A stretch of 64,000 nt of DNA from Amphiscolops sp. MND2022 (Eukaryota): NCBI GenBank assembly GCA_964187785.1, contig OZ076409.1:12836001-12900000 (forward strand), given 5' to 3'. A program made the translations under genes and the position numbers. This document shows, piece by piece, positions 12,556 through 41,379 of this stretch (within the stretch, counting starts at the first letter, position 1; each line of letters opens with the position of its first letter). The notes beneath the pieces are model-generated. The model did no database searches. It saw only the letters and a program-made list of their open reading frames with translations, and had not been told where the DNA came from.

Positions 12556-13830
12556 CTAGTATCTGAAGTCTTCTGAGTAGTTTGGATCAGGATTAGGTCT
12601 CAGATTATATCTTCCACCTCTAGGACTCCGATTTTCATTTCCTTCATCATTTTGCGATATTTCGGGCACGATAATATCATCCCCCTTTTTTGGAGACTTT
12701 TGTGCATCGCTATCATTAGCAGAATTTCGTTCTGAAAAATTTGCATCGTTTCCTTGTCTTTCGGAGAGATCCGGCAAAGATTTTTCTGGATTTTTGTGGT
12801 AAACGGCCGAATCCGGCCAATCAGAGTTTTCATTTCTAGTAGCATCACTATCTTCATTTGCATTGCTGACGTCACTTTTCATTCTTTTATCTCGGCTGTG
12901 CACTGTATCGTTGACGTCATTCGGACGATCAGTCGTGATTATGTAATCCGCTTCATTCTCGCTTGCGTTATCTGCGTTCGCTTTTGCCGTACTCGGTCTT
13001 TCTTCATTCGCCAAGCTAGCCGGAATAGGCTCGTTGCCTCGTGTAGCTAGCTGTTCACCAAAGTTTGTTTCCCACGTAACTGTGTACAAATCGTCCTGCG
13101 GAATGACAATTTCTTCGTCCGGCAGTAATCGCTCTTCTCGGAAATTGTCCTCAAGCGGTTGATTGGGGACAAACTTTTTGAGGCGAATTCGATGCAAGAT
13201 CTGAGTTTTAAGGTTAATGTTGGTTGACAGGGGTATACAGTCTGGTTCACCATTTTTGGTAATGAGTACATTCAGGAACTGTCTCTCGTCTAGTAGCGAT
13301 TGTGGAATTGATTCTGCACAGTTTTCGATATTCTCGGTTCCCAAGGGGTTTGGAAACACCGGATGGTTTGTACCATCATTTATTTGCCAATTTCCAATTA
13401 GCGCTCTGGTTTTCTTGTTATGGGTAATTGGAGGGTTCTCGTGGACTGTCTTGTTGTAATGTTCAATATCGTCTAGAACATATTGAAATTGCAATAGATC
13501 CTGGTTGCAGATCTCAGTGTCCCAGTAGTGATCTCTTCCATAATCTGGGTCGATGTATGTAGGGTTGTAGTCGTCTACTAAGGGAATGGGCCTGAATCGG
13601 GTAGTAAAGGTAGTTGTGTAATCAGGATCCCAAACAGGAATTGATTTCTGGAACAAATGGGTATTATTATAGGTAATAATGATAGCTTTTTCAATTTGCT
13701 GCTGCCAGACAACAGAAGGATAGCCCATCAATTGTTGTTGGTAATTATGAAAGTTTTTGGTTTGAGGGTCCGATTTGATGTATTGACGGACAGAGACTAG
13801 TTGGTTGTATTGGAGTGGTGGCGAAGCTAG
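12556..13830 (-). pseudogene. pol: Element A pol remnant: pre-protease region fused in frame to the integrase C-terminal tail
   Basis: ...CIPLSTNINLK|TQILHRIRLKKFVP... joins segments homologous to element C YIPLHSTIVLK (before the protease) and TQTLHRIR (IN tail); ends RYNLRPNP.PN like C. Confidence 0.85.
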
Positions 13831-13835
13831 TTTTT

Positions 13836-15544: not shown

Positions 15545-17131
15545 TAGAAAGAAAGTCCGAGGTAAAACAGTGAATTAGGTTTTATTCGGAAAATAGGATT
15601 TTGTACGTTGTATCGTAAACAGGTATATCAAACTAAACTTGGAGAAGCAAAATACAATTGTGTCCCTCTCGGAAAAATACCAATATATATACCCCTGAGA
15701 GGGTGACACTCACATTCCTTGCATGACAATCTATTTACAAATTCCATAAAGGGCACATGACCATGGCGGGTGACCACTAACATTCATTCATTTTTAGCGG
15801 CGTCAACTGCATCAAAGCACTTAGGAATTTGTCCCGTTAGGGCCAAAGGGAATTCATACCTAATTCATTCGCAGCAAAATCATTTAAAGTTTACATAAAA
15901 TATGGAATGCACTCAAATGCATTTTCTAACTGCAAATACTATCATCAAAGGGGAGCGGAGGAATTTAGCCTTATTATATTAGGCAAACAACACTTTGACC
16001 AAACATCAAAACTAATACTTTCAAATTGTTTACAGTGAGAGGAATGTAAACTATTTAGCGGCACGTGCCTACACACGTGCGTAGAATCAACAAAACAAAG
16101 ACACAGTTTCATGCAATAGAAATGAACATAATATAGCAATATGGCCTAATACGGCCATTGGACTTGGGAACTGGCCAATAGTGAAGGCCGGAATAGGACA
16201 GGTAACGGGTATTCGGATTGCTACTACTGGTCGTTATTATTGCACTAATTGGATTTAAAAAGCTCATTAACATCTTCAAGTATATAAATATAATCTTACA
16301 TGACTGTAAAACAAACTCATTCATGCTTAAAAGCATCTCTAATAATAATAAGCAAAATGGCCTAAACCGGCCATTTGCCTTTTGTCCTGCATTACCAATC
16401 TAATATAACGTCAAGTGGCCATATACGGCCAATCAATTAAAAATGTGTACAGCGCTTTACACAATCTGGCCTGAATAGGCTAATTGCCTCGTATTAAGTA
16501 AACATTATTAAAATACTGGTCAAACGGCCTTAACCGTCTGAAAGAGCTAAGTCTGTGGTGTAGTTAGTTAATACTGCACTAGAGGGGTTATTCAGCCTAA
16601 GAGTACAAGCACATGAATCCTGGTTAATAATTAGCATCACAATTGCGCTTTTTGTGAAATGGCCGGAACCGGCCGTCTGACTGGATATTTATTAAAAGTA
16701 GCGAAGTTATGTCCACAGGCCTTATTCGGCCATTAATGAATGGAAATATTAACTGCGTAGCAAATGGAGTAATTTGATTGGACAAGGCCGCGTGCTCAAG
16801 TGACGTATCTGGTACGGGATTTTATCAATAGCAACTATAATTAAAACAATTAGCAATGCTTCTTCTAACACCTTTTATCATTGCATCTGACGTATTAAGA
16901 CAGCTTCAAGTACTTTCCAAGAAAATAAACAGCACTACTGATTAAATAGCACAGATTACTTGATGAAAGCTAAATAGGCCGGAACCGGCCATTGGACCAG
17001 CGTCCGCGAGCATAGTGGTTAGATTAAGGCAAGCGGCCATAACCGGCCAAATAATGTATTGCTGAGAGATAATGCTAATACTAGCTATACTGCACTGTGA
17101 TTGGTTAATTTGCAGGAGGCAGCCTGCGACA
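14950..17131 (-). repeat. 5' LTR of element A (2182 bp), with TATA-like box (15684-15691) and AATAAA (15581-15586)
   Basis: Direct repeat of 9020-11197; adjacent to the PBS. Confidence 0.97.
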
Positions 17132-17992: not shown

Positions 17993-18263
17993 TGTACTCA
18001 CCTACATTAATAACCAATAGTATTTAGATATTTATAGAATGTTCTAGAATTTACATTTATTTATTATTGAATGACTGTAAGTCTCTACTCCCTCAGAGAG
18101 AGAGAAAACTAATAATCAGTATTCAGTTGACTTCCTTTTTGTTCTACTTCTAACACCTCGAACTAGTTGTAATAAAGTTAGCTAGCTAGCCTGTCTCTTA
18201 GCCGCTTTTAGTAGTTGTTAATAATACCACCAAAAGAAATAACAAACCATTAAAAGCAGCACA
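17993..18263 (+). repeat. 5' LTR of element B (271 bp)
   Basis: TGT...ACA ends, contains AATAAA, followed by ATT-TGGTGCGAC; first ~135 bp repeated at 36217. Confidence 0.88.
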
Positions 18264-18266
18264 ATT

Positions 18267-18278
18267 TGGTGCGACTTG
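18267..18278 (+). promoter_or_regulatory. Primer binding site of element B (TGGTGCGACTTG)
   Basis: TGG-initiated tract 3 nt after the LTR end. Confidence 0.7.
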
Positions 18279-18488
18279 TAAAATTTCTTGCCTTTTCTCC
18301 TGGATGATTTCTCTTCTCTCAACAATCATACAAATACCACTCTCCATCTTTGAAATTCTCTGGAATTGCAGTGAAATCTTTCTAGAATTTCTAGAAAATT
18401 TAGTCTGTGACTTTCTGAATTACATTATTAAATACATCATCGTTCGAAAATACAACAATCCACTCAAATACAACAAATTTTCTTCACT

Positions 18489-18712
18489 ACCGGTTTATCA
18501 CGTTTTCTAACACGTTGACACGGTTCTTCCTCCTGCTCTTCTTGCCACACCGGTTTATCACGTTTTCTAATACGTTGAAACGGTTTCATTTCAGACTGAT
18601 TTATCCATTGTGACACAGTTCTCTTTCTCTTCTCTTTCCAGACTGATTTATCCACAAGTGACACAGTTCTGTTCTCTATACTGATTTATCACAGCTAATC
18701 CGGAAGCTTGTT
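18489..18712 (+). repeat. Short imperfect repeats in the leader of element B
   Basis: ACCGGTTTATCACGTTTTCTAA.ACGTTGA twice with a 60-bp period; CAGACTGATTTATCCA...GTGACACAGTTCT twice plus a partial copy. Confidence 0.85.
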
Positions 18713-19805
18713 GAAACAGATCGTTGATGTTTGTCTGGTTTATCAAGGTTTTCTAACACCTTTGACACAGCAACTTTCTTCAATCCTGCTATCTTAAACG
18801 TCAGGTGGACTCCTGGTGTAATAGTTGACTGAATGCATGTCCAGCTCAGCTCACCTATAAGCACATACGTATCAAGATCAACTTCGTGATGGCAGAAAAC
18901 CTGGATTTTCTACCTTTACGTTTCGGATCCATTTTCTACGAAAAATTCCTACAAAATAGTTTTCAGAAATAGACTCTGAATACAAAAAAAGGGGCAACCA
19001 AGACTATCTACAAAAAACAACCACGCACTATTCCATTTCTTTTCCAATTGTCGACAAACAATACAATTAATTTTACAAACCTTAAACAATACAAATAACT
19101 TCAAAACTTAAAAAACACAAGCAAAATAACAACACAATCTACACTCAACCTTATATCTAATACTTTCAACGGTAATAATTTTAACATAATCCTACAAAAC
19201 ATTTATTTCAACAAAATACCACATACAATTCTTACAACTCTTTTGCCCCAAAACCTAAAATAAGGCATGTAAATAACACAAACACTGTAAAGTTAGTTTT
19301 CTACTTTCAGGCGCCCACAATTGCTATCCCCTCCCGTAAGACTTAGACAATCAGACAGCCTCACCAGCTTACTCTGATTCTAAGACTGACTAACAACCTT
19401 GGTAAGTGTAAACGTCTTAAAGGAGAATCGAGAGGACACCGAACTACGTTCGAATCTTCAAAATTCTCAGGAAATAAAAGTAAAAGTAAAAGAAACAAAG
19501 ATCAAACTTTGATCTTGATCAGCATTGATCAGACTTTGGATAGTGGACGTTGATTGTTCAGAGTTCCACTCCCTTAGTCTTAAAACACACAACCCACTTA
19601 AAATTAAAACCACCTTAGTTTTTCTGGACGAGTCAGTAACCTTATGTTAGACACTTTGAAGTGATCCAGACTTAAAATCACATTTAGTTTCTGTTAGCAA
19701 TCCTTTGAGGTTGAATACAGATCCTAGTGCATCCGCTTCTTTCTTCTCTATCCAAAACTACTAACATCCCAAATAACTTCAAATTCTTGTTAGAACACAA
19801 ATTAT

Positions 19806-22800
19806 ATGAACTCTAACATATACAATCAAGCGATTTATCCTTTCAACTTTTACATTCCGCCAATTAGCTCACTTCAAAATCCTACATCAAACGATTTTGA
19901 AAGATTAATTGAACGATATCAACAATATTTGTTCTTTATCATAAATCAACAAAGACATTACCCAAGAGCTCCAACTTAGAAGGATCTCTATAAAAAATTA
20001 TTTTCAACGTTTCAATCTTCACATTATAACATGTGGGGAAAAGTTACCACAGTAGTACTCATTACAACATGCACGTTTTGTGTCTTATTTATAGTTTGTG
20101 TTCTCCTTGAAAAAATACTTACAGTGAAAAGAGATAAACTTTAAAAATGTCCTCAACAACAACCTTTCTACCTTGTCAAACTCCCGTCATTAAAATGCAA
20201 AAGTTGTAAAATTAGAACTAAACCCATTCCTACAAAACATTATTTCACATTATACACAACCACTCCCATTTGAGAATGAACCTCATACATTTGAAACAAT
20301 ACTTCTTATCAGAGAACAATTGGACACATACCTCTTCTATATTAGATACAAAGTTTTAACTATCACCGCAGAATACCCAGCTTTTCAAATCTCCTTTCCT
20401 CAACAAAGACCTAATTCATCTGATATATACAGAAGAACAATAAACCCAATGAATCTCCAAGTTCCTATTAAACAAGTTTTTCATGCTTTTTTAAACAATG
20501 TGAAAGACCACAACCTAGCACATGAAATTCCATAATTTAGTCCAAATGCACTCGACGACCTTGAACGAGATATAAACAATTTCGAAAAAGAAATTATTGA
20601 AAGATTAGTTAATCCTGAAGACAATCCTCATCATTGGTTACAAACTGATATACTACGAATTCAAAATTTCTTCTACCATTATTTCAAAGACTTAACATTA
20701 AATGACCAAACAACTCCTCAGGTCAAAGTAATATCTCTATTCCTCAGAAAATACTTCAGATTTAATTATCAACTATTATGGTCACAACAAGATCAATCTG
20801 CTTTTACAGCATTCCCAAATCATTTTACAGTCGACGAATGTTTACCATTCATCATCAGTGAACAAAATGAACAACCTTATTTTCATAAACCACAATTAAT
20901 TACAAAACAAACTTTAGATTACATACGTTTTGATCCTCTATTAATTACAGAAAATGATCTATTTGCAGACAATAGACCTTATCACTATGAACAAAATTCT
21001 CAAGTTCAGCAAAACTTACATTTTACCACTAATAACTATACTGAAGATGATAATACCAATAATGAAAATACATTCCAACAACAAAATCAAAATGAAAACT
21101 ATACCGATAATGAGTTTACTACTCAAGAATCTACAATTTCAACACAAAGATCATCACAAACAGGAATATCAACATCAGTACACACTCAGGCCTTTAGAGT
21201 TCCCACTAGAGTTGTAAGTCAGAGACAAAATACACATAGTCCTCAATCTCATTTAGATACATCTCCAAACCGTAATATAACTTTCAACCTTCCATACACG
21301 GATGAAACACACGACGAAACCCATGATACATTACATGATGATATTCTGACCCCATCTAGTGCTCAGAATACTTCTGGTAATGTTGCATCTCCAACAAGAA
21401 CTATTCCTGATTCTACAAGATACATTACTCGACCTAGATATGATCCTCTATCAAATCCCTCTGCTTTCCGCTCAAATAGATCGATTACTTCAAACAACAA
21501 TTGTAATGATAATCCTCAAACTTCCAATCAATATTACGATCCATTTAATTATAACTTTTATCCTCCATCAAATACAACTACCAATACAAATATCAACCAA
21601 AATCACTCTCAATTTAATACAACTTCAACAACACAAAACCCTTTCATACAATTATCACATACCACTACTTCACAGAATATATATTCTCAAAATCAAGGAA
21701 CTTCGTATCCTTCCACTTCTTATTCTCATATCACACAAGCTTCTCAAAGGAGACTTCAAAACCCTCCACTTACACATATACCAACTGTTCCTTTGTATCA
21801 AATGCATCCAAATCCAAATCCTAATCCTAATCCAAATCCATTACCACAAAATACAACTCAACATATACCTCCTCAACTCACACATCAATTAGCTCCTCCA
21901 CTCCAGTATTTACCAATGCCACAAGATACCTTTATGAACATGTCCGCTTCAATACCAGAACCTATGAAACCTTTTGATGGTTTTGACCATTCTTATACCC
22001 CAGAAGAATATCTACAACAAGTCGAAGCTAGATTAACCTTCGCCATAGGTGAAGAACCTCAGAATAATCTTATAAGATACAAATCTTGGCATAACAGACG
22101 CATGGCTTACATACAATGTTCATTAACAGGAACAGCTGTCGATTGGTATACTAACCTTCATATATCATATAAACAACAATGGAACTCCTTTGTACAATTA
22201 TTCAAAAAACAATTTTCATCTCAAAAAACAGCTTACTACGCCCAAGTAGAAGCTATGTCACTCATGAAAAAAGATAATGAAACAATACGCCACTTCGCCC
22301 TTAGAGTACAACAATTAGTTAAAAAGGGATGGTGTAATGAAAATGCAGCTACCATAAACCTCAAAAATAATGAAATCTTTACTAAAGGATTCCCCAAGAA
22401 ATTAAAAGATTTTGCCCATAAACGACAAGTTAAACATGTATCAACATTACTTGAACCTTCAATACCATTTCACACACTTGTTAGAAATGCCGATTCTGAA
22501 GACATTGCTAATAAAAAAATTAGAACTAACGACTTAGCTCTAGAAATAAACAAAGTATCGCTTGAAGATGATACTAGCAAAAATAAATTTGAACATGAAG
22601 ATCATATAATGGTTACTCAATCTGGAGACCCAAATAACAAAAACAAACCAGCTTATAAAAAATATTGTTCCTATCGTCACAAAAATAATCATAGTATTTC
22701 AAATTGTTATCAAAAACAACGTAATGATGAATACCAAAAATACAATAACCAAAGATCACGAACTCCTCAACAACTTTTGTACAATATTTTAGCAGTAAAC

Positions 22801-25800
22801 CTAATAATTCACAAGAAAATCGAAATGACAATACAAATCCTTACTCCTCAGATGATGATCGTAACAAATATAATCAAAATTACTATAATGATAGATACAG
22901 AAATAATGATAGATATCGTAGCAATAGTAAAGAATATTCGCAAAACAACTATCGATCAAATTCTCGACAAAGATATTACAATCGATCTCGAAGTCCATAT
23001 AGATCTCGATTTGATAATTATTATCAAAGAAGAACTCCATCTAGACCTCCATATAGATCTCCATATAGAAATAACTCAAATTACAGATATAACTCTCGCT
23101 CAAGATACAGATCTCGTTCCCAATCACAAGGAAACTCCTTTAAACGATATAATTATCCATATAGATCTCCATCAAGACCTAGAGATTTTAAATCACGATC
23201 TAGAACACCCTCACGAAACAGACAACAAAACAGAATAAATCAAGTAGACGTTAAATCTACAAAAGACAATGATAGTACAAAGATTGAAATCCACACCTGT
23301 CAAATAACTGAAATAGCTAATACAATCACTCCTTATAGTTGGTTTTATCCACTATATATTCACGCTTCTGGAACAAATGATAACATATTACCTTCAAAAT
23401 TGGAAATCTTATTCCTCTTAGATACTGGAGCATCCATATCTGTTTTGAATTTACCAACATTTCATGTAATTTCCAAACAATTAAACATCAATGTTCCAAC
23501 CAATCTTCAAAACAAAAGAGCCAAAACTCTTACAGTTGCAAACCAAACTGAAGTACCAATAATACACTATATTTCGATGACCTGTTTTACTGAAGTAAAC
23601 CATCAAACGCAATCCTTCAATATCGATTTCGCCGTAGCCAATATCTAATACAACATTCTTGGGACACCCTTTTTCAAAAAACACATCCAAAATATCGATT
23701 TTCAACAAAATATTATGACTTACATAGAACAACATCCAAAGCTTCCAACAAAAACAACATTTTCCACATTTACAGAAAAGGATTACCCATATATTTCTTA
23801 CATCTATACTATTAAATGTAAAGAACCAATTCACTTTAAACCAAGGTCAGGAAAAACCATACATTTCCCAATTAAAAACTATTCAAATCTACATTTTGAA
23901 CTTGAAGATAATACAAAATTCTATCCAACAAACCCATATGCATACTTCTTACAAAAAGTTAAAGATATCTTTCATTTCTTAGATATGGTAGTCAATGGAA
24001 AAAGCAAAGACTCTTGTGCAACCATAATTCAAAACTTTACATCTTACCCAGCCACATTACCACGAGGAATCATTGGATACATAGAGATACCTATTACTCA
24101 AACAACTCCTCCTCACTATAGAGTTAAAGATGTAAATTCACTTATTCACTCTGTTATACATGCGTATCATCCTGATACCACAACTCCAATTAAACAAAAT
24201 CCATATGCAGATATGAACTTATGTGCTAGGGTAACACCAAAATCCCTATTAGAAAGTAACAAAATAGAAATCAACGACGAAACACTTCAACTTCCTATAC
24301 CTTCTGTTACTGGAAACCTTCGACCCTCCGATTAAATTCGAAAAGATTTTCCTCCATTACCCTATTCTACAGAAAACCAACAATTCATAAAAAAGTTTAA
24401 CTTTGAATACTCAGATCTAACCGATACAGAATATGTAAAACTCTGCAATATTTCGATTGATAATCAAAATTGTTACGCCAAACATAAGAACGACGTAGGA
24501 AAAATTTTCTATTCCCTTTCGAATTAGAATAAAAGATAATTGTACACTTCAAACACAAAGACCTTCTAAAGTACCAATTCACTATAGAGATAGACTAAAT
24601 AAACTTTTACTAGAACTCGAAAAATACAATATAATAGAACAAATTGGTTCCACATCAGATGAAAAACACACAATTGGAACAACATTTTTAAATCCTTTGA
24701 TTATTATCCGAAAAGGAGACGCAATAAAAGTTGTATTAGACGCAAGACATCTAAACTCAAACACCAACCAAAAACTTACATCTTGGCCTATTGAACCTTT
24801 ACCTCCTGAATTAGATAGAGCCAATAAAAAATATAAACCAACTATTGATCTAATGTATGCCTATGCTCATACACCATTAGACGAAGAAACGATCAAACTT
24901 ACAGGATTTTCATCCGGTGACAAACTATACGCCTTTATCCGTGGATTTTATGGATTAAAGGGACTTCCAAACTTTTTCACAAAACAAATGTCAACTTTCT
25001 TTAGATCATTTATGGACAAACGTTCTGCGTTAGTTTATATCGATGATGTTTTATTACTCGCAAATGAAAAACAAGAAATGTTTGAACTCATAAAAGAATT
25101 ACATACAATAGCATCTCAAGAAAATCTTAAACTTGCACTCGAAAAATCATTCTACATGTTACTCAAAGTAAAATTCCTTGGACATGAGATTGCTAACAAC
25201 ACATTCAAACCAATTCCATCCAAAATCGAAGCCATTAAATGAATTCCATCACCAAAAGAAAAGAAAGATGTTATGCAATTTCTTGGCAGTGTTAACTTTT
25301 ATTCAAAATTCATTGAAAAACTCCATATAAACCATGAACCATTGTATACATTACTACATGATGATGTCAAATTTCAATTGACACCTGAATTAGAAAAAAT
25401 ATTCCAAAATGTTAAAAATGCAATGACAGCAGACACTGAATTATCAATACCCAATACAACGCATCCATTTTTCATAACAGTAGATGCTTCGTTAGTTGGT
25501 TTAGGCGCAGTCGTATTCCAAATGAACAAAGAAAATAAGATGAAAGTAATCTCTTATAACTCCAGAATTCTTAACACACAAGAACAAAAACTTTCAACTT
25601 TAGATAGAGAACTTCTCGCAATAGTTTACGCATTACAAATATATGAATTTTTGATCATTGGACCTCCTCATCCCATATACATCTTCACAGATCACAAACC
25701 TTTACTACATTGTTTCGCAAAGAAAGGAAATCTTAGTCCTAGATTCTATAGAGCACAAATGCAACTAACCAAATTCTCCAAACTAAAAATCATTCATACC

Positions 25801-28200
25801 ACTGGAAAAAACTTAACTGTAGCAGATATGCTTTCACGAACTTTTACAAAAGAACAATTACAAGTACACCAAGTACGACACAAACAATTACCACCTCAAA
25901 TAGATTTCTCTATCATGAAAGATAATCAACTCAAACCATTACATTATTTAGTGAAACACGAAGAAATCAAGTACAATCAAAAAAATGATTGTCATCCTAT
26001 CCTTGCTGACTACGAAGACGACCAATTCTCTATCCGTATAAATAACAAAGGAGAAGATATCCACATAAAACTTTTAGATTTCTTCTCTTTTCAATCTATT
26101 GTTCCATTTGAATCAAAATATAAAACGCCTACAAAAAACCAAACAAAATCTCTCTTACAACAATCGACAATTCTTAATGATACTGATATTCTCAGTGATG
26201 ACGATGAACTAACTCAATCAAATAACATCCAACATCAAAACTCAGACATATTAAAAGAACACACACTTGCTATACAATATCCTACCAAATCCGATTATTG
26301 TAGACAACAAGTTCTATTTTTTGATCCATCTTTTTTCAAATACAAAAGATATTTTAATTATTTCTTCCTCCAAGAAGATACACAAATAACCATTGAAACA
26401 ATAAAAGCTCAACAAAACCAAGACACTGTTTTACAAAAGGTTTACCAATGGATACTTGAAAATGAAAGACCTATACAAATAAACCCAACAATTGCAGCTA
26501 ATTCTTTCTTATTAGTATATTACAAAATTTTCAACCAACTATATATTAACCATGATACAAAAATTATACACATAGATTATCCTAATCTTCACGATTCCAA
26601 TCCGAATCAAAGAGACAAAATATGTCTACTATTTAAACTCTTCCACGCAGCTTTTAACAAACTTCATGCTCACGGATACTCAGAAATGAAAATATCCATC
26701 AAAGCTTTCAACCAATTTTACTTCATACCATATTTGAATAAATGGATGTCAATATTCATCCATGATTGTATTGAATGTCAACAAAATAAACTCATTAACC
26801 AAACAATACAAACTGCATCCATACACACCTTCTCAGAAAATGCTTCATATTTTAATTACCGAATATCAATGGATACAAAAGGACCTATAAACCCACCATC
26901 AAATCAAAATTCATACATTCATGTTATAGTAGACGCTTTTAGTCACTTTGTAGTAACAGTACCCATAAAGCAAAATAATGCTCAAAACGCTGTTAACTCT
27001 TTACTACATCATTGGATAACAAAATTTGGACCTCCTGTATGACTAGTTACCGACCGTGGAACAGAATACATTACTTCCGAATTTGCAAACCTTTGTGCTA
27101 CAATGGGAATTAGACATTCACCAAGAACTCCTTATGCATCATGGACTAATGGTCTAGTTGAAAATCAAAACAGAAATCTTGGAACTCATCTCAGACTTTT
27201 CTTACATAACACTCCAGAAAACTGGTCTACTCAAGTTCATATGTATGCTTATACACATATTTCACAACCATTTTCTGAAATGGACTTATCTCCATATGAA
27301 ATACTATTTCATACTATACCCAGAATTCCAATCAATTTTGAACTCAATCTCCAAAGAGATACATATAGAAATTGTACTTCCCAATATTGTCAAGAATTAC
27401 CACTTCATACACACCATGACAAATCAAATCTAAACCCCTTCTTCCATAAAATTTTATCTAAACCGATCCCACAATGGATCTTAGCCACTGAAACTGCTAT
27501 GATACAAATATACCACACAGTATATGAAAACACAAAAAATATAATTCTTAGGCCTATTTTAACAAAACATACCACAATCCGAGACCCTTGGATATTGGTA
27601 CATTTGCACTAAAAAGAAATTTTCTCCACGTTCATTTTTCCGATAAATTAAAACCTCTCAGAATTGGACCATTCAAAATTATTTAAAAAATTTCCGATAT
27701 AACGTATGAAATTGTTAATCAAGATGGTTATACATCTCACATACACAGAAATCATTTAATTCCTTACTATCCAAAAGAACCAATTATTTTTCCTTTCCTA
27801 CAACAGTATAATCCTCATTTATTCAGTGATAGTCTTTCGAATATAAACGATCAAATAATTAACTCCGATGAAAACCAATTTAGTGACGAAGATCAATTTT
27901 CTTACACAACACCTAATAAAGAAACGGATATACCATCCACAATCGACTTCCAACCAGAATCATTTAGCCAATATTCTTCATTTCCGTACTAACAAAAGGA
28001 ACAAATTCCTCCAAATACCAACTCAGATAACCAATCAGACCTTCATGACTATGATAATTTTATTAACCCCCGAAGACACTCCTATAATAGATACATTTTC
28101 CGCCCACAAACAAGAAAAGACTATCGTTTTTCAAGAAAAGACTTTTCAAGAAAAGACTTGGTGAAAACGATATAATTTCACTTTCTCAAAAACCCTGCTG
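19806..28200 (+). pseudogene. gag-pol: Element B Gag-Pol polyprotein (~2,800 codons, several stops and frameshifts)
   Basis: Retrotransposon-gag core (SLTGTAVDWY...WNSFVQLFKKQF), knuckle CSY(R)HKNNHSISNC, protease LLDTGAS, RT YIDD, RNase H DAS/ELLAI/TDH/ADMLSR, integrase zinc-finger remnant and DTKGP/DRG/NGLVE, GPF motif (IGPFK). Confidence 0.92.
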
Positions 28201-28381
28201 AAATACAGAAAGAAATATAAAATGAAAATTTGAAAGAAAGAAAGGAAGTTTGAAGCTTAATGTGAAATTGAATGAAAAATATTTCACAAGTGATAATGAA
28301 AAAAAGAAATCCTAATTGATATAAAATTATAACTAATTTACAAATTGAAACAAACTACCATAACACAAAGATTTCAAAATT

Positions 28382-29833
28382 GATAGACATATTCACTCAC
28401 CATCATCAACCACAAATAACTCATCTTCTAGTTCAACACATTCACTCCAAAAACTACCTGAATATACAGCATATTCAAACTCAGATACAGACATACTGGA
28501 TTCCTCATCCTCAAATCCCAGTCCATCCGCTCCATATACTCCTGATAGAGTACCAACAAGACCCACCAATACATCTATAACCCAAACTCAAACACTAGTA
28601 ATAACAACTCAATCACAACCTATTTCACGAAATCTAACATTTGCAGAAACAAATTCACCAGTTTCTGACTCTAATGATGAAACAGTTACAACACCAAATA
28701 CACAAGATACTTCAAATATTTTAAATAGACCTCCTCTTCCACCAATCACTACCACTAGTTCCGTTCATATCCCTGATCCCAGCTCAGTTCTACAATACAT
28801 AAACTCTTGTCCACATAAAGTTCCAACCGCAACGAAAACAAAAAGAAAACCTCCTTTACCTACATTACCACAAGACCTTAATCTACCATCATCAAGTCAT
28901 ACTCCAATAACATTCTTACCAGAACCTTCATGGAAGGCACCAGTGAAGAAATCACAATAACACCCAATTCCTTCACCATCTGAACTAAGTTCATTCACAT
29001 TTTCTCAAATATGTCCCAAACTTGAATTAGAACGTGTACATTCAACCACTACATCTTCTTTACCAGATTTATATCATAAAGACAAAGATTCTGACTCAAC
29101 TGCTAGTACTAGAGTACCAAGACATAATTATAACCTTCGATCTCAACAACAAAGAAATTCTCAGGAATTACAATCTTTAACTAGTTCAAGTACAAACTCA
29201 AGACTACTTAGACAGCACGCCCAACCCAGATTAGACACTTCTTCTCTTTCCTCATCCCAACCCACTATACCATCTTCTTTATCACTACCATTTCAAATCA
29301 CATCAGGATTTGAAACAGCTTCTCTTCTTTCTGAAGACCCAGTAACTATATCAGATAGCGCAGCTAATTTTTCGCGAGTTTACTCACCTAGTTCAATAGC
29401 ATCAAACTCTTTTATACAATCACCTGAATATTTTTTAGGAGATTTCTCAAGACCTCCAACACCAAACCCTCACGAATATCCCATCCGTGTTAATTCAAAA
29501 ATTGTTCGTACGCTTAACGAAGCTCCTCGATACACGGTCGTACCTGCAAGATTTATAAACAATAGTTCACTCTCAACTCAAAGAAAACAAAGAGAATTAC
29601 GAAGATTACAAGAACAACAACTCACTTTAAAATTTGAAGTAGAAGTCACATTCAACTCCTCAGGACCTCATCCATTCTCTTTTTCAACAAGAGTAGCACA
29701 CAAAACAACCCCATCACCATTCATAGTCACATCCATTTCTTACCTTTGTGACGCAGAATTACCTGAGATTAGAACAGGACATATAAACTTTTTTAATCCC
29801 TACTCCGGACTTAATTATAGAACAATATTTTAA
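28382..29833 (+). pseudogene. Ser/Thr/Pro-rich reading frame (~480 codons, one internal stop) between pol and env; no start Met seen
   Basis: By manual translation the frame is open apart from TAA at 28958; it is the same frame as env and ends at a 19-bp tandem duplication near 29816-29853. Confidence 0.6.
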
Positions 29834-29866
29834 CTATAGAACAATATTTTAACCAATGTTTTAACC

Positions 29867-32522
29867 ATGAACCAAATCACCTTTACCTTATACCTAATAT
29901 ACATAATACAGGTTGTAAAATACACACATATAATACATATAGTTCACTCTTTAGTTCACCCTTCAACTGTTCCTAAAGTTGACACAACCAATTCCGAAAA
30001 TCATATTTCAGACCAAGACCCTAACATTTTAAACTTGATGGTATCCCATTATGATTGTGCAAAACAAAACAATTTAAGGCAATTCAGTTTCTTAAATGTC
30101 GAACCATGTAAACAAGCACCCTCAGATATACAACACACAAAAACCCAAGCAACAGTTTATGTTAGAGCAAAGGCCAAAAGAATAAAAGCCTTTAAATGCG
30201 AAGCATATTTAAAGACTGAAAAGGTCTGGTGTTCACGAACATTCACATCTAGTAGACGATATGATCGTTCACAATGGGGACAAAACATATTAGATCTTCC
30301 AAAAATATTGGACCCTGTTGAATGCAAAAACATGATACGATATTTAAACGCGACTGATAGCGAAGAACTGAACAATTACAATATACAAAGTTCGTTCTCA
30401 TTGTTCGACAGTAGTAACTATCAAAACACAATTGAACGAATTCAAACACCATTTAGAGTAAAAAAATTAAACACATGGCATATTGGAACCTTCGTATTCG
30501 ATGAAAATTATCCCGACTGGATAGTTAATGTTACACAAAATACATACTCCAGATGTCGATCCGACCAAGAACATTTAATTACCCGACAAAGTTGGAAACT
30601 TAGAATTGTTAACACCGCAATAGATTATGACGATAAAAACAATCAATTAATACATGACGGACACATATTACCATGCTATCATTCAGACGGATTTTGTAAA
30701 CCAACGACAAAAACTCCATATACATTAACATGGTTTGATGAAAAAAATTGCCTCATATTTCAACTTCAAGAATTCATTGGTAGAATGACACGAATCAAAG
30801 ATAGATATTGGATAGAAACCGATACCTTCATTGAAACTTCAAACATCACACAAAAACTTCAAACTGAAGGAATACAAGGAACAAGATATCCTAATGTGAA
30901 AACACCACAATCAAAAGTAAGCAATCCAAGCCTTTCTCGATTTGAAATATACCCAATTGCACAAACCTTTTGTGGAAAACCTGAACCATTATTCTCAACA
31001 CAATATGATGACATCTTTGTTACATACTTAGATGGCTTTGATATGAACACAGGACTACCAAAACCACACTCAATAAATGACCAATCAATTAGTGGAAACT
31101 TAAAATATGATGACTCAAATAAAAAGTATATATTCCCTGCATTGAATATATCAAACAATTTCGCCTTTTCAGATTATGACGCCCACATTAATACAAAAAT
31201 TGATTTCACAATAAATCATGTATTTAAATCCATGACAGTACAAGAACAAAACACCCTTCATACAATATGTGAACTGGAAAGAACTCAATTGTTAACGATC
31301 CTAGCTATGTCAGTTAAAAATCCTCAATTAGCCGGTTTTCTTTTAACTGGAAATCGTAGTAACTTTCTCTACGTTGAAGGATCTACAGCATGGCTGTATG
31401 ATTGCCCTCATTTTATATCACCACTATACAAGGCAGATAAATGCTTTGATAGAATTCCCATACACTACAGAGAAACGATAATGTATGTTAATCCTATAAC
31501 AAGACAAATTTTTAACTATGCAACACCAATTGAATGTGGAAATAACCCACAAAATATAATCGAATTAGACCCAGATTCTAACGACGGAGATTTTCATGTG
31601 TTTACACCAGAACCACTCAAACGAGAAGCACCACAAATGTTTAAACTTACCCAAATTAAAACAACAATCACTCCTAATATATTTACCGCCCAAGATGCCG
31701 TTATATACTCGAATGCAGAATTAGATCATTTCTGGAACAGAGTATTATTCGCTAAACATTCAGACACAACCCTTCAATTACTTGGAAAATCATTAAGCTA
31801 TGATTTCATCACAGTGCATAATGATAAACATTCCTACTCAGCACATAATCCTTATAATCATTTAAGGATTGGAGTACATGACCACTTGTTAAACCTCTTA
31901 CCATTTTTCAACCCTGACTGGTTCAGTCAAGCATTCATTAATTTCTTTGGATATCCATGTTATGTTTTAACACAAAGTGGAATTTATTTTTCAACATTTC
32001 TTTTCTCTTAGAAAAGTCTTAACATTTTTACTCAAATTCTACAGAACAATTAGCATAAAATACAATCTCCAAAGCAACATTTCCATTTTGAGTTCAATAG
32101 CCCATGGATTTTTTAATATAGTTACATCGGAAATGGTAACCGATTTAAACAATACAGGAAAACGAAAACGGATATATACTAAACACAAAATTACAACAAG
32201 TGAAATGGATAATATCCTATTGCCGGAAAAAGAATTAAACAATAAACGAAGATACTCTGATAATGACTCCCCTTATTTACCTCCTAAATATTCCAGTAAG
32301 AATTCAACATTTCAATCACCGCAAAAGACACACTCAACTACTGTCAACGATATTAATTCTCAGGACTATAACCCAATATTATCAAATGTAAAAGCTGTAC
32401 CGGAAAGTCCTGCTAAAGTCTTTACAAAATTTAATCCCTCCCAGCTAAAAAGCAATAACCAAATAAACAAATTAACTCCAGAAAAAGTTCAAAAATTATC
32501 AACAAAATTCTTCTCAGTTTAA
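29867..32522 (+). CDS. env: Envelope glycoprotein, class III fusogen-like (chuvirus G / herpes gB type); frameshift near 32005
   Basis: Hydrophobic N-terminus; Cys-rich ectodomain YDC...CEA...CELER.QL..ILAM...P..AG.LL.G...EG..AW...CP...CFDRIP...PITR...C; hydrophobic C-terminal segments and a tail in ORF 31977..32522. Confidence 0.8.
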
Positions 32523-32885
32523 CTTTCATTCAAACCCAAATTCTCACTCGGACCAGTCTCTCCTTTTCAACTCAACTGAAAAATTCACTTGCCTATCACA
32601 ACTCAACTCTCAAACAGAAGACTTCAACTGGATCTTCAGTCCATCTAAAAGACCGAAATTACAGACGTTTCTATTCCTGGAATAGATGCCACTGTGATTG
32701 TTGATGTTTTCAACCCACAATTGTTTCAGTTATTCTCATATTGTAAGTACAATTTAAACTTCAATTTTAACAAACAATTTAATGGATAGAAAAGACATAA
32801 CAAAAATTTTCCTTATTATTAGAAACAGTATAATCAAACGTTATAATCATTATTTTAGCTCTACAAAAACACGCAAGTTTAAATA

Positions 32886-34178
32886 ATGGAATCCTTGCCC
32901 GAAATTGATGTAGTTAATTCTAACCCCTCTGAATTGCTTGCATCCCCTTTGAATATAACTATTCAACAAAATGTTAACGAAGATAATAACTCATCTTCAG
33001 ACTCTCAAGATCCCATGGAAACTATTCCTATTGAACAAGTAGATCATGTTAACGCAAGATCTCAAAAAAGAAAGTACCCAGATATAACTGCAGAAAAACC
33101 TTTTATGGAATCTGGCGCTTGCCCTCCTTTCATAAAACCAGTTAAACAAGATGAAGATAGAGATTGTGAAATAGTTCCTATTCTCTCATCAAAACAATTT
33201 ACCTTCCAATCTCAGTTAACCTCGTTATATATGATTCCAACAAAATACAAATTCATCATCAGAGAACTTAAAAATGATTATCATACTTCAATCGCTTCAA
33301 AATTGATCACCCCATATGATTGGTGGTTAAACAAAAAAGTGAAAATTTTCTCACTCCAATACAATTTCCTCAGACCATCTCCATATGATCTTCGAACCGA
33401 AAAAAATGATGCAAATTTTTTGCCATACCAAATCAAAAAAGCTCATCACATGACTTATCAGAAGTTTCTTCAATACAAAGAGCCCGATAATTATATATTC
33501 TTCAATTCCAAGTATACGTCGCCATTTACTTTCAACTCAGAATATTTGATAGATTATACCAAAAAAAGAGGAAAACTTAGAAATTACGATCCGCTTAAAC
33601 AAAGTTTTCTTTTCCTTCTAAATGATAACCCAAAAAGACAAATCATTGTACCACAAGAATACCTCATTCTGAACGACGATTCGTTATTACAAGAAGATAT
33701 ACCTCAAAATATATCTGAGCCTTTTCCTCCACTTCAACATATAGCCTCTCAACCTCTGGGAGACTGTGAATAATCTTATTTTTACGCAATGACCAAAAAG
33801 GGGTATTCAAATAATGAATTAATTTTCATTATTTTTCACCTGCTTTCACTTCTTACAAATGGAAATCATAAAAAACACAAAAAGACAAAACAAAAATCGC
33901 CAAAGAAAACCAAAAATGACATTCCTCAACCACAAAGTTTTCGCCCAACGGACGAATTACAGAAATATACAGAAATTCTGAACATCATAAAACCTTATCA
34001 TCACCCGAACCGAGATATTCTCATAACAATCGCCGAAATTGTAAATACTCTTGAACAAGCTCGACGCATAATACAAAATATCGTATTTGATACGACAAGA
34101 ATTAGCCAATCAGCTTTGTGTATTCGCACATCATTAGACGAATTCAACTACACAATTGAAAAAATGCACCGATCTTAA
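32886..34178 (+). pseudogene. Element B accessory ORF 1 (~430 aa, one in-frame stop at 33771-33773), function unknown
   Basis: ORFs 32886..33773 and 33789..34178 share a frame and are 15 nt apart; acidic N-terminus, basic KKHKKTKQKSPKK tract. Confidence 0.7.
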
Positions 34179-34701
34179 CTGGTAATTATGGGATAATCAC
34201 TTTAAATTGTTAACACTTATCACTTAATCTCTTAACAACCTGTCAAAATTAATTGAGTCTACACGCATATGCCTGCTATGCATGATTATATTACACGCTT
34301 GATATTAAAATACTCTTTTAAAATAAAATAATACAAAAATTTTCAATCGCGACATGAAAATTTTTAACAAAATTCCTCAATTGCTCCTCCTTTTAATGGA
34401 CCGATTTCAACAAATAAGAACTTATATGAAACATTTTTAAATACCCTTCAAAAGATTTCCAAAATACATCAACTTAATTCTTAAAATTAAAAAGTTATAA
34501 CATCACAAATTACATCAAAAAAATGTCAACTACGAAATTCTATTTTCAAAGGAAACTTTATTGTAAACAAACTAATCTATTTTAGGTGAATATCGTCACA
34601 ACTGCTTCGTCAGCATTCCTTCCTCCTCTCAAGCCGTCCATCCAATCAGAAATCCAACGTATCTTCTACAACTTTCAACAAATTTCATCATATTCTTCAA
34701 T

Positions 34702-35178
34702 ATGACGACACTTCATTCTGGTGACACAGACTGCCCGATAGCTCCTCTTCTTTCAATTCCTTCAGCTCGATTGCGATCCTTGATTCTGAAAAAGCATTTA
34801 ACAACATTAAATGCGCAGCTCAAAACAGATAAAAAGGCAGACCCTCATCTTACAAGAATGATATTGCTCAATATGTTCCAAATATTCCAAATTACACGAA
34901 AAAACTTTGACCAATATCTTCAAATTCATAAACATCCTGATACATATTCAACTCAACGAGACGCCACTGCCCAAACAGAGCATACTACCATCAAGCCCAA
35001 ACTTTTAGTACGAAACTTATCTAACAGAATACGTTCTGAAATGGAAAAACAACGTCTAAATTTCTATTGGCCTTCAGACAATCACGACGATACTGATGAA
35101 GAACTTCAAAAAGACCCTCCAGAAGCACTTCTAGATGATAATTACCCATACAAAACAAATACCTACGTCTCTTTCTGA
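34702..35178 (+). CDS. Element B accessory ORF 2 (158 aa or more), function unknown
   Basis: Sense ORF inside the element; preceded by a CTAAT...TTTTAG acceptor-like site near 34586. Confidence 0.5.
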   Translation: MTTLHSGDTDCPIAPLLSIPSARLRSLILKKHLTTLNAQLKTDKKADPHLTRMILLNMFQIFQITRKNFDQYLQIHKHPDTYSTQRDATAQTEHTTIKPKLLVRNLSNRIRSEMEKQRLNFYWPSDNHDDTDEELQKDPPEALLDDNYPYKTNTYVSF

Positions 35179-36216
35179 TATCAACAGATGACATCAACAG
35201 CACTCGTCCACCCCCATCTTCGAATCCAACATCTACAACGATTGATCGTCACAGCTCAGCACCCGTTCTTCACAACGTCATCGCCGCCCAACAGCTGACC
35301 CATCTTCTTCCATCTTCCAATCTTCAATCTTCAGCCATCCAATTCTCAGCCGAAGATGATTGATAATCAATAATAAAGGAAACTCAAAGAAAAAACATTG
35401 TCCATGAGAATATTTAAAAAGATTCAAACTCATCTAATATTTAAAAAGATTCAAACTCATACCGAAAACATTCGCAATGTATTTATCATTTCAAATGTAA
35501 TCCCCACCCATATTTATTTGCCCTTAAAGTCTTTTAATCCACACCCGTACCGATATTTATTTGCTTTATTTTTAAAGAATAATTAATAGTTATTATTTTT
35601 CAGTGCTATCCTATCCAAAATTAACATATGTTAACAACAAATCTTTTCAAAATTCAACAAAACAAGTTCAAAAATAGATCAAGCACATTGTTCAAATCAG
35701 ATTCGAATAATGACAGACCCAAATTCTCAAAGTTTTCAACACTTGTTACATAACAAACCCGCCAAAGTTAATCACAACCTGATATCTTTTCAGACAGTTT
35801 TCACACTCGATAAAAAAATCTTACCAACAAAAATTTTTCAATGACTCTTTGACCTTTAACTCGTATGATGTTTGCTCACGTTTGTTCAATGCGAAGTTCA
35901 TTCAAAGACTTCAACAGAGGCATAAAATTGAGCATCTACCAGTTCAAAAAACAAGCCGACGAAAGCATAGTGAAAAAACACTTTGACGCTTTTTGAACTG
36001 TAGTCGCACCTACGAGGTGTCAATCAAAATTTTGACAATTCGAGGTACACCAATGAGTCGAACTTACACCACTCTTAAAGAGACTTTTGCCAATCATCCA
36101 TCAAATGAAAAATGTTAACTAGCTGAAACGCTAAGAACATTTAAACAACATTTTTTTCTCCATTTTAATTACCGATGCTATTTTAAAATTTTATTTTATT
36201 TAAAAACCGGGATGGA

Positions 36217-36348
36217 TGTACTGACCTACATTAATAACCAATAGTATTTAGATGTTTATAGAATGTTCTAGAATGTACATTTATTTATTATTGAATGACT
36301 GTAAGTCTCTACTCCCTCAGAGAGAGAAAACTAATAATCAGTATTCAG
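36217..36348 (+). repeat. Truncated 3' LTR of element B
   Basis: Matches 17993 onward up to ...AATCAGTATTCAG, then identity ends; preceded by AAAAACCGGGATGGA. Confidence 0.92.
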
Positions 36349-41272: not shown

Positions 41273-41379
41273 CTTCTTTATTTGGCTTTTCTTCGACTGT
41301 TGACCGTATTTTAATTGTTCCACAATGAATTTCAGCTTTAATTTGGATTAAGGAGAATATTGGAAAATTCCCTCCATTC

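Follow-up and report, generated by a model that had tools for sequence, protein, structure and literature searches.

The 64,000-nt window analysed here carries, on its + strand at 17993-36348, a stretch that the initial annotation described as a retrovirus-like LTR element with Gag-Pol, env, an S/T/P-rich frame and two post-env ORFs. This raises the question of whether the three extra frames are genes of a single element, and to which group of retroelements such an element belongs. Pfam matches and the gene order in sibling copies largely bore out the description, and we consider it highly probable that the region is a decayed, 3'-truncated copy of a high-copy family of large, five-gene endogenous retroviruses of the Ty3/gypsy type (Metaviridae-like).

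Structure of the element across its copies

The window element is one broken provirus copy, and the full element, ~18.5 kb in size, was read across siblings. Ten siblings were taken from the same genome; nine were 93-96% identical to the window element, three of them aligning with it end to end without a break, and the order gag-pol, ORF2, env, ORF4, ORF5 was constant in all nine that could be aligned. A search of the same genome with env DNA as the query returned 3327 first-look candidates, and each of the 40 that were scored matched at 95-100% identity over the full or near-full length. Across the siblings, the layout is LTR, leader, gag-pol, ORF2, env, ORF4, ORF5, a ~1-kb tail, PPT and LTR, with the following features in window coordinates.

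17993..18263, + strand: 5' LTR, 271 nt here and 269 nt in siblings, with TG...CA ends
18264..20146, + strand: leader, ~1.9 kb, without a long conserved frame
18267..18278, + strand: PBS-like TGGTGCGACTTG, TGG-type, 3 nt past the LTR, kept in siblings
20147..28201, + strand: gag-pol, a single frame read across siblings, ~2,685 codons
28364..29833, + strand: ORF2, 489 codons, S/T/P-rich, no hydrophobic segment
29867..32444, + strand: env, 858 aa in open siblings
32886..34178, + strand: ORF4, 430 aa counted from the ATG, soluble
34702..35178, + strand: ORF5, 158 aa, intact in the window copy
35179..36201, + strand: 3' untranslated stretch, ~1 kb, between ORF5 and the polypurine-like tract
36202..36216, + strand: polypurine-like tract AAAAACCGGGATGGA, adjoining the 3' LTR, kept in all four siblings shown
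36217..36348, + strand: 3' LTR, truncated after ~132 nt in the window copy

A direct repeat (17993-18106 versus 36217-36330, 96% identity) bounds ~18.2 kb and reaches 18126 and 36348 when followed by eye. The LTR had initially been put at ~133 nt and the leader at 1.5 kb; both figures need revision, the former to the 269 nt of the siblings, whose 3' LTRs match element nt 1-272, and the latter to the ~1.9 kb listed above. The LTR termini are TGTACT...GCACA. Target site duplications of 4 bp are exact (GTAG/GTAG, GCAG/GCAG) in two of the four siblings having both LTRs and match at three of four bases in the other two. Both the TG...CA termini and the duplications agree with Ty3/gypsy elements, in which the latter measure 4-6 bp. 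Membership in Troyka, which has CG...CG termini and 3-bp duplications (available text of PMC12440569), was rejected on the TG...CA termini and 4-bp duplications found here. Searches for tRNAs found no primer for the PBS-like sequence, and the selection test gave no consistent signal in the leader. DUF1759 was found in the window's other element and is absent from the ~18.5-kb retrovirus-like element.

In the window copy, gag-pol contains premature stops at 20533, 23646, 24333, 25240, 27040 and further on, as well as frameshifts near 20191, at ~22.75 kb, at ~24.4-24.5 kb and at 27541. Its env is frameshifted near 32006, and stops interrupt ORF2 at 28958 and ORF4 at 33771. None of ten sequences had a wholly open gag-pol; the longest open pieces (1428, 1133 and 1055 codons) jointly tile one frame at 20147-28198. 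The ~2,800-codon Gag-Pol of the initial annotation is not open in the window copy.

The genome also contains a sister family with the same five-frame order, to which the identity is ~53% in pol, 53% in env, 34% in ORF4 and 35% in ORF2.

Affiliation of pol and env

The domains and motifs recognised in gag-pol and env are as follows.

22111-22326, + strand: Retrotrans_gag (PF03732), capsid, Pfam match
22666-22707, + strand: CCHC knuckle, mutated in the window copy
23415-23435, + strand: PR (aspartic protease), DTG motif
24820-25191, + strand: RT (RVT_1), Pfam match, YIDD at 25036
25381-25776, + strand: RNase H (RT_RNaseH), Pfam match
26665-26790, + strand: IN HHCC, residue pattern seen
26854-27174, + strand: IN core (DDE), Pfam match to rve, residues seen
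27666-27677, + strand: GPF motif (GPFK) of the IN C-terminus
31181-31798, + strand: match to PF24664 (Monjiviricetes_fusion) in env, E 8.5e-23 in the window and 3.5e-23 in a second Pfam search

The knuckle reads CX2CX4HX4C, CSYCHKNNHSISNC, in a sibling; a Gag capsid domain, such a knuckle and a GPF/Y motif at the IN C-terminus are given in PMC12440569 as Ty3/gypsy features. The pol domain order is PR-RT-RH-IN, as in Ty3/gypsy; PF17917 and PF17919 (RT_RNaseH and RT_RNaseH_2, Ty3/gypsy type) begin ~60 residues past RVT_1, the ~290 residues from RH to IN had no Pfam match, and the Integrase_H2C2 and rve matches together span 26650-27174. When compared with the PDB, RT-RH best matched Ty3 Gag-Pol (2.2e-37), then CaMV (5.7e-24), with weaker matches to foamy (5.8e-15) and MLV-type (1.6e-8) proteins. 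Of all solved structures, Ty3 is thus the nearest to this RT-RH, and by this similarity the element is of the Ty3/gypsy (Metaviridae) type and not spuma-like; the comparison with foamy viruses drawn at the outset does not hold. Membership in BEL/Pao was rejected, as only gypsy-type Pfam families matched in pol and gag. An alternative, overlapping frame at 22610-23235 is open in most copies and is not likely a gene.

The PF24664 match in env is partial (profile positions 302-506 of 653) and is present in 57 of 64 env homologues. The env gene supplies its own ATG, in a good context, after which comes a signal-like N-terminal segment; the protein also has a TM segment (near aa 704-722) and contains 16 Cys as well as 10 N-glycosylation sequons. 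These features predict a type-I membrane glycoprotein that is akin to the fusion glycoproteins of Monjiviricetes RNA viruses; the class assignment rests on one partial Pfam match, since the AlphaFold (AF2) model (pLDDT 32) was too poor for judging the fold. With a separate gene for a putative viral-type fusion glycoprotein and the order gag-pol-env, the element has the make-up of an env-carrying gypsy element, or 'errantivirus' in the broad usage of PMC13524379.

Two other origins for the element as a whole were weighed. The element might be a gypsy element of the ordinary sort that took in unrelated elements or pieces of host DNA bearing ORF2, ORF4 and ORF5, which would then not be its own genes. 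The initial annotation had rightly judged it larger than typical elements, and its ~18.5 kb, ~1.5-2.5 times the ~7-12 kb (LTR to LTR) of the env-carrying gypsy elements catalogued in the available text of PMC13524379, would fit such a composite, as would the failure of the three frames to match known families. However, a repeat search found no internal LTRs or repeats inside the 18-kb element, and the strand bias of the enclosed DNA (GC skew -0.2 to -0.45, coding strand A-rich and G-poor), which the flanks lack, is uniform along all 18 kb. In addition, all aligned siblings have an identical frame set and order, the sister family shares this order despite the divergence of its pol, and selection was seen in the correct reading frame only (see below). 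Because the siblings match the window copy colinearly at 93-96%, the extra frames belong to the element and did not arrive as nested insertions, as had been supposed from the start; a composite is largely refuted, and we give it hardly any credence. The other possibility is a true complex retrovirus lineage (Retroviridae-, spuma- or Loki/Odin-like) instead of a gypsy-type one. Pointing in this direction are the presence of five genes, some of them post-env, an ORF2 that lacks an ATG and resembles an exon, the long leader and the A-rich, G-poor coding strand, as well as the GPF motif, which is common to gypsy, Retroviridae and Odin (available text of PMC12440569). In contrast, RT-RH has a much stronger match to Ty3 than to the Pol of foamy or MLV-type viruses, and RT_RNaseH and RT_RNaseH_2 directly follow RVT_1 with no tether-sized gap, whereas Retroviridae, Loki and Odin have a tether and a non-orthologous RNase H (PMC12440569). 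Membership in Retroviridae/Loki-Odin was rejected on this Ty3-type RNase H directly after RT, and a lineage of this kind is very improbable.

Selection on the extra frames and their possible expression

The initial annotation had proposed a check for purifying selection, for which we compared N/S, the ratio of amino-acid-altering to silent changes, of variants common to at least two copies with that of variants in a single copy. N/S was lower in shared than in single-copy variants of pol (0.47 vs 2.90, p 8e-8), ORF2 (0.50 vs 2.44, p 0.003), env (0.26 vs 2.26, p 1e-7), ORF4 (0.19 vs 1.77, p 1e-4) and ORF5 (0.88 vs 2.79, p 3e-5, 30 copies). Constraint was weak in gag (N/S 1.14), and also in ORF5. 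No drop of N/S in shared variants was observed in the off-frames. Among the noncoding controls, 3 of 12 tests gave a nominal p<0.05 (0.012-0.027; N/S 1.0-1.1), so that the p value for ORF2 is only moderate support; its N/S in shared variants is lower than in every noncoding control. ORF2, ORF4 and ORF5 carry the signature of purifying selection.

Searches that included Pfam found no known protein family for ORF2, ORF4 or ORF5. ORF4 has 277 representative relatives at E<=1e-3, down to ~30% identity and with conserved motifs, and its AlphaFold model (pLDDT 48) was too poor for judging the fold. The search with ORF5 gave 204 matches, in which a length of 158 aa is retained at identities of 65-92%, and ORF5 was intact in 17 of 30 copies. 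In the sister family, 68 of 89 scored copies of ORF2 were without stops and four loci were 100% identical.

The notable point on ORF2 is that its start codon is missing in two families: none of ten sequences has an ATG, and the sister ORF2 is likewise without Met. An ATG-free ORF2 is not unusual for its codon make-up, with ~1 ATG expected. It is possible, though unlikely, that ORF2 is an exon spliced to Pol, Env or a short Gag leader peptide, yielding an alternative isoform and not an independent accessory protein. The missing ATG, the position of ORF2 directly between pol and env, and the overlap of its end with the start of the env frame in the sister family are consistent with such an exon, but a stop codon lies directly 5' of ORF2 in its own frame, the pol-ORF2 spacer contains stops, env starts at an ATG of its own with a signal-like segment, and our search established no splice sites. 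For ORF5, and perhaps ORF4, the question is whether the frames are non-functional and open only through the youth of the copies and their skewed composition. ORF5 is short, no relative was detected in the sister family's ORF5 slot, which holds unrelated sequence, and the overlapping frame in gag-pol shows that a frame may be mostly open without likely being a gene. Nevertheless, subfamilies that are 65-68% identical all have an ORF5 of precisely 158 codons, while a chance stop is expected every ~16 codons at this composition (as estimated from base frequencies), and the selection signal of ORF5 is in-frame only, starting at the ATG and absent from the open frame 5' of it. As for ORF4, it has 134 relatives at E<=1e-10 in addition to its 34%-identical counterpart in the sister family. 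Non-functional frames are therefore improbable, and we favor the reading of ORF2, ORF4 and ORF5 as accessory genes.

An LTR-driven full-length RNA would serve both as the genome and as the Gag-Pol mRNA, from which Gag and Pol would be made in equal amounts, since there is no frameshift between them, and then cut by the protease. The PBS and PPT would be the priming sites of reverse transcription, and the integrase would produce the 4-bp duplications. Env, ORF4 and ORF5, which have their own ATGs, would probably be expressed from subgenomic, probably spliced, RNAs. The start codon of ORF2 would most likely be supplied by a spliced upstream exon, ORF2 being ATG-less in two diverged families; this model follows, by analogy, the accessory exons of complex retroviruses and the CERV protein of Cer1. 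Our best guess is that ORF2, ORF4 and ORF5 encode soluble regulatory, RNA-handling or host-countering factors, although we infer both the roles of the accessory genes and their mode of expression. More speculatively, and with considerable doubt, the element may represent a 'complex' Metaviridae clade of large, env-bearing animal gypsy-type retroviruses with a self-evolved accessory set, including a spliced-leader ORF2 and Rev/Tat/Bet-like or host-countering ORF4 and ORF5. If this is true, the accessory set arose independently of vertebrate complex retroviruses, the sister families appear to be still transposing, judging from identical ORF2 proteins at several loci, and the clade occupies a noticeable share of the 1.07-Gb genome.

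Comparison with known systems

Complex retroviruses (foamy viruses, lentiviruses and deltaretroviruses) have genes past env, an accessory exon that lacks an ATG, and genomes of large size. The element described here differs from them in its Ty3-type pol, with no tether and second RNase H visible in Pfam, and in its env, which Pfam does not place with the class I retroviral Envs. The further comparisons refer to the available text of the papers cited. Fish foamy-like ERVs reach up to 17 kb (PMC6431247). The metazoan 'ancient errantiviruses' (Chary and Hayashi, eLife 2026, PMC13524379) have, as here, a Ty3/gypsy-type pol, the order gag-pol-env, an env of viral-fusogen type and multiple copies, and chuvirus-like, gB-like glycoprotein genes occur beside gypsy pol in that study. 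It is a three-ORF survey in which no accessory genes are reported, whereas three extra genes are present here, and neither the PBS 12-mer nor any of four env peptides was found in its supplements as listed. The mosquito element Anakin (Dezordi et al. 2020, PMC7642597) has a chuvirus-derived glycoprotein, an env related to Jingchuvirales/Monjiviricetes and similar to that described here, but its pol is BEL/Pao (PMC12440569, PMC13524379) and not gypsy-type.

The planarian giant gypsy element Burro/GYPSM1 (Arkhipova and Yushenova 2019, PMC6431247) likewise has thousands of copies, accessory ORFs and an env with homology to mononegavirus-type fusion proteins. Burro exceeds 30 kb and carries env in frame between gag and pol in a ~4,900-aa polyprotein that also contains host-like domains (BIR, BCL2, MATH and others); in contrast, pol is here followed by env as a gene of its own, and no domains are recognisable in the extra genes. 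The CERV protein of Cer1 in C. elegans (Sun et al. 2023, PMC10309623) offers the best precedent for the function of ORF2, ORF4 and ORF5. Cer1, which lacks env and has only one extra protein, has no sequence similarity to the element described here and was returned by none of the sequence searches. LTR retrotransposons of bdelloid rotifers (Rodriguez et al. 2017, PMC5408684) have captured extra ORFs, with ORFs lying downstream of env or in the interval from pol to env. The five-gene layout is uncommon but has precedent among animal retroelements. The suggestion that the element was undescribed holds only for the ~18.5-kb family and its accessory genes and not for its kind, since env-carrying gypsy elements, giant gypsy elements and extra ORFs have already been published (PMC13524379, PMC6431247, PMC10309623).

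Copies of the element and its gene map

The element at window positions 17993-36348 (plus strand) is a genuine, abundant and large gypsy-type endogenous retrovirus. A DNA search of the 1.07-Gb assembly with its env returned 3327 first-look candidates, a figure that is not a copy number, and each of the 40 matches scored showed 95-100% identity across the entire length or almost all of it. For 10 of the 13 best env matches, excluding the window's own copy, a 20-kb region spanning the match was retrieved; these siblings are labelled c01-c10. Nine of the ten aligned to the element at 93-96% identity, three of them unbroken from end to end, while c07 (L021/L022) was rearranged and was excluded from the alignment. 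Because the siblings are colinear with the element at this level of identity, the extra reading frames belong to the element, as the initial annotation had assumed, and are not nested inserts. The open frames of every copy were projected onto window coordinates to give the gene map.

Features of the element in window coordinates (ORF2, S/T/P-rich frame between pol and env; ORF4 and ORF5, post-env frames)
17993-18263, + strand: 5' LTR of the window copy, from sibling alignment
Directly 3' of the 5' LTR, + strand: TGG-type primer site TGGTGCGACTTG, from sequence
20147 (ATG) to 28198, + strand: gag-pol, ~2,685 codons, single frame, tiled from copies
28364-29830, + strand: ORF2, 489-496 codons, open in c03 and c09
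29867 (ATG) to 32441, + strand: env, ~858 aa, open in c08 and c10
32886 (ATG) to 34175, + strand: ORF4, 430 aa, open in c01, c03 and c10 (429 codons in c04)
34702 (ATG) to 35175, + strand: ORF5, 158 aa, intact with its ATG in 17 of 30 copies
Directly 5' of the 3' LTR, + strand: purine-rich tract AAAAACCGGGATGGA, from sequence
Ending at 36348, + strand: 3' LTR of the window copy, to ~nt 133 of 269, from sibling alignment

Among the plus-strand stop-to-stop frames, Pfam identified Retrotrans_gag, RVT_1, RT_RNaseH, RT_RNaseH_2, Integrase_H2C2 and rve, and a 723-codon frame of the window matched PF24664, Monjiviricetes_fusion ("viral fusion glycoprotein"), with an E value of 8.5e-23. Read from stop to stop, the S/T/P-rich frame of the window spans 28364-29830 and the post-env frames span 32883-34175 and 34576-35175.

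The Gag-Pol originally put at ~2,800 codons proved to be one frame of ~2,685 codons across the copies, although the whole frame was open in no copy sampled; stretches of 1428, 1133 and 1055 codons do stay open in individual copies, and they overlap one another. In the window copy, gag-pol carries stops at 20533, 23646, 24333, 25240, 27040 and beyond, and frameshifts near 20191, 22.75 kb, 24.4-24.5 kb and 27541. Other damage comprises a stop at 28958 in ORF2, a frameshift near 32006 in env and a stop at 33771 in ORF4; ORF5 is undamaged. A second frame at 22610-23235 (~209 codons), which overlaps the R/S/Y-rich repetitive part of gag, was open in six of nine siblings, probably as a consequence of the repetitive composition; a frameshift takes the window copy into it.

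Termini, classification and env

The short LTRs of the initial annotation correspond to a direct repeat (17993-18106 versus 36217-36330, 96% identical) that encloses ~18.2 kb of the window and, judged by eye, extends from its TGTACT start to 18126 in the 5' copy and 36348 in the 3' copy. However, the siblings' 3' ends align to element nt 1-272, and the true LTR is therefore longer, at 269 nt (TGTACT...GCAGCACA), and incomplete at the 3' end of the window copy. The second half of the 3' LTR (from window 36349) is found nowhere else within the window, and its loss was probably caused by deletion. Four siblings with both LTRs are flanked by 4-bp target duplications (GTAG/GTAG, GCAG/GCAG, ATAT/ATAG and ATGT/AGGT). 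Paired LTRs differ by a K2P distance of 0.011-0.046 in these four siblings; in the window copy, compared across 132 nt, the distance is 0.023. The median distance from copy to copy was 0.047.

Two genome pattern searches for the primer tRNA gave matches no commoner than in controls, ARAGORN found no tRNA at two loci, and an Rfam search across the element gave no match. Inside the repeats, the plus strand is G-poor and A-rich, with a GC skew of -0.2 to -0.45, and this bias is absent from the flanks. In ORF2, G makes up only ~9% of the coding strand; this composition is reminiscent of the skew in some retroviruses.

The domains run in the order CA, a CCHC knuckle (CX2CX4HX4C, read in a sibling), PR (DTG), RT (YIDD), RNase H and IN, the last containing HHCC, D-D-E and GPF motifs. 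Compared with PDB, the best match of the PR-RT-RH-IN region was Ty3 Gag-Pol (2.2e-37), ahead of CaMV (5.7e-24), foamy virus Pol (5.8e-15) and MLV-type RT (1.6e-8). The sole named match to pol in a sequence search was a cestode hypothetical protein with 28% identity, and no BEL/Pao family was matched in the element with Pfam. Ty3-type RNase H families begin ~60 residues past RVT_1, and this predicted placement is the gypsy arrangement. Retroviridae, Loki and Odin are described as having a tether and a new RNase H (PMC12440569), unlike this element, and that arrangement was rejected. In the same source, Troyka elements have CG...CG termini and 3-bp target duplications (PMC12440569); they are excluded because the element has TG...CA termini and 4-bp duplications.

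Env starts at its own ATG (context AACCATGA). In the open protein, a hydrophobic stretch starts near residue 8 at the N-terminus and a single transmembrane segment lies at ~704-722; the protein also has a tail of ~135 residues, 16 cysteines and 10 N-glycosylation sequons. Its match to PF24664 spans positions 302-506 of the 653 in the profile, and this family is carried by 57 of 64 database homologues, all of them unnamed ENA records (identity 47-94%; the largest cluster has 1758 members). Env gave no match to PDB by sequence and chance-level matches only by profile, and none of 17 pattern matches of its alignment in IMG/VR was confirmed. An AlphaFold2 model from a 26-row alignment had a pLDDT of 32 and is unusable for fold class. 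A chuvirus-like glycoprotein with a herpesvirus gB-like structure has been reported to adjoin gypsy pol genes, and also to occur in mosquito BEL/Pao elements (PMC13524379); the predicted env would fit such a glycoprotein beside a gypsy pol. A 17-nt direct duplication (TAGAACAATATTTTAAC twice, window 29816-29850) lies exactly at the ORF2 stop, just 5' of the env ATG; it is kept in eight of nine siblings, and the remaining one has a single unit.

Other features were seen in the window. A second, unrelated LTR-type retroelement lies at 40586-52534 on the minus strand. Its strand bias runs the other way (G>C and T>A on the plus strand), and it contains a DUF1759 gag-like frame, RVT_1, RT_RNaseH_2, Integrase_H2C2, rve and Integrase_p58_C, interrupted by several stops and frame changes. 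At 291-1771 on the plus strand, frames encoding parts of a helicase (Pif1 2B and UvrD_C_2) precede an endonuclease/exonuclease/phosphatase domain and look like a Helitron/Helentron-type remnant. Adjoining frames of 427, 339 and 266 codons at 12556-15574 on the minus strand, with no Pfam match, raised GC and a strand skew of their own, are possibly another repeat.

Selection on the frames and a sister family

Selection was tested without a consensus. In each codon column, variants confined to one copy, largely decay that followed insertion, were counted apart from variants in at least two copies, which arose while the lineages still replicated. The two classes were then compared by their ratio of changes that alter the amino acid to silent ones (N/S). 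Ten sequences were used for gag-pol, ORF2, env and ORF4; the rows of 24398-24780 are uninformative, as this segment lacked a codon anchor. For ORF5, 20 extra 900-nt stretches around the frame were added to give 30 copies.

N/S among variants shared by at least two copies versus single-copy variants
gag-PR, 10 sequences: 1.14 vs 2.92, p = 4e-4
pol, 10 sequences: 0.47 vs 2.90, p = 8e-8
ORF2, 10 sequences: 0.50 vs 2.44, p = 0.003
env, 10 sequences: 0.26 vs 2.26, p = 1e-7
ORF4, 10 sequences: 0.19 vs 1.77, p = 1e-4
ORF5, 10 sequences: 1.20 vs 3.33, p = 0.15
ORF5, 30 copies: 0.88 vs 2.79, p = 3e-5

Three of 12 noncoding control tests reached a nominal p of 0.012-0.027, with a shared-variant N/S of 1.0-1.1, so a small p alone needs care. 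The shared N/S in the true frames of pol, ORF2, env and ORF4 was at most 0.5 throughout. Off-frames of the ORFs showed no drop in N/S among shared variants, and for ORF5 at 30 copies there was no signal in either off-frame or in the open stretch 5' of its ATG. A signature of the purifying selection that the initial annotation had proposed to look for was found in pol, ORF2, env and ORF4 and, with 30 copies, in ORF5.

A diverged relative in the same genome, sampled as one copy (14 kb fetched, 18.1 kb read), carries five open frames arranged as in the element: a gag-pol of 2225 codons or more, whose 5' end lies beyond the fetched DNA, an ORF2-like frame (478 codons), env (923), an ORF4-like frame (551) and a fifth frame (313). 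Identity between the two families is 53% in pol, 53% in env, 57% in the gag capsid region, 34% in ORF4 (E 2e-55) and 35% over the C-terminal ~290 residues of ORF2 (E 2e-27). The fifth frame showed no similarity to ORF5 (hhalign probability 0.1). A genome search with the sister ORF2 gave 8276 first-look candidates (not copy numbers); 68 of 89 scored lacked stops and the protein was 100% identical at four loci. The sister family is therefore much younger than that of the window, and appears to be very young. The sister family had come to light in a genome search with a 447-aa relative of ORF4, 33% identical to that of the window family. That search returned 8271 first-look candidates, likewise not copy numbers, of which 92 of 94 scored were free of stops, with open frames of ~380-600 aa. 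Together, the lineage of both families may make up a noticeable share of the 1.07-Gb genome.

Accessory frames and comparison with known elements

ORF4 has 277 representative relatives at E<=1e-3 and 134 at <=1e-10, down to ~30% identity and with conserved motifs; the ten looked up were all unnamed ENA records. ORF5 has 204 database matches, and its 158-aa length is held in subfamilies at 65-68% identity. Pfam gave no family for ORF2, ORF4, ORF5 or their sister-family counterparts, the ESM Atlas no match for ORF4 or ORF2 residues 290-489, and PDB no match to the ORF4 profile. No hydrophobic segment was found in the three frames. AlphaFold2 modelled ORF4 (38-row alignment) with a pLDDT of 48, and only the C-terminal helices at 357-430 reached ~70-80. 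Selection maintains ORF2, ORF4 and ORF5, and these comparisons give none of the three a known relative beyond the lineage.

None of the 10 ORF2 sequences contains an in-frame ATG, and the sister ORF2 has no Met at all; in ORF2, a Met-free interior is not unusual given the codon make-up (~1 expected). Readthrough from pol was considered and rejected: the purine-rich 165-nt spacer after pol contains stops, a stop in the same frame lies directly 5' of ORF2, and the sister ORF2 is in a different frame from its pol, a relation that differs between the families. Since a selected frame of 480-490 codons lacks a start codon in two families ~47% apart in pol, the start would have to be supplied from elsewhere. 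The usual retroviral solution is splicing to an upstream exon, and ORF2 would acquire its start codon in this way. Such splicing is documented for CERV, the accessory protein of the gypsy element Cer1 (PMC10309623). A splice-donor scan with a simple consensus gave 12 candidates; the GT of the best leader site, 19402, is not kept in siblings.

Our best guess, drawn from the parallel with CERV and with accessory proteins in complex retroviruses, is that the three proteins would have regulatory, RNA-handling or host-countering roles. To our knowledge, CERV is so far the sole worked example of "complex"-retrovirus-type genes in Metaviridae. The window family would offer many natural copies for studying the origin of accessory genes. 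For annotation, unannotated ORF4 and ORF5 in thousands of copies can pass for host genes.

Within the first 400 characters of each cell of the PMC13524379 supplements, whose alignments are gapped, the PBS strings and four env peptides were absent. The suggestion that the element is possibly undescribed holds insofar as no description of the family or its three accessory genes was found in open-access literature text, but env-carrying, giant and ORF-capturing elements are already known (PMC13524379, PMC6431247). Env-carrying Ty3/gypsy elements are widespread in metazoans, according to a survey that sought gag, pol and env only and lists LTR-to-LTR spans of ~7-12 kb in part of its table rows (PMC13524379). 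Burro, a giant planarian gypsy element of more than 30 kb, has env homology and accessory ORFs, and LTR elements capture ORFs between pol and env or 3' of env (PMC6431247). Described env-carrying gypsy elements have three genes, whereas the window family has five. If ORF2, ORF4 and ORF5 are regulatory or host-directed, the genome complexity that defines "complex" retroviruses would also have arisen within Metaviridae.
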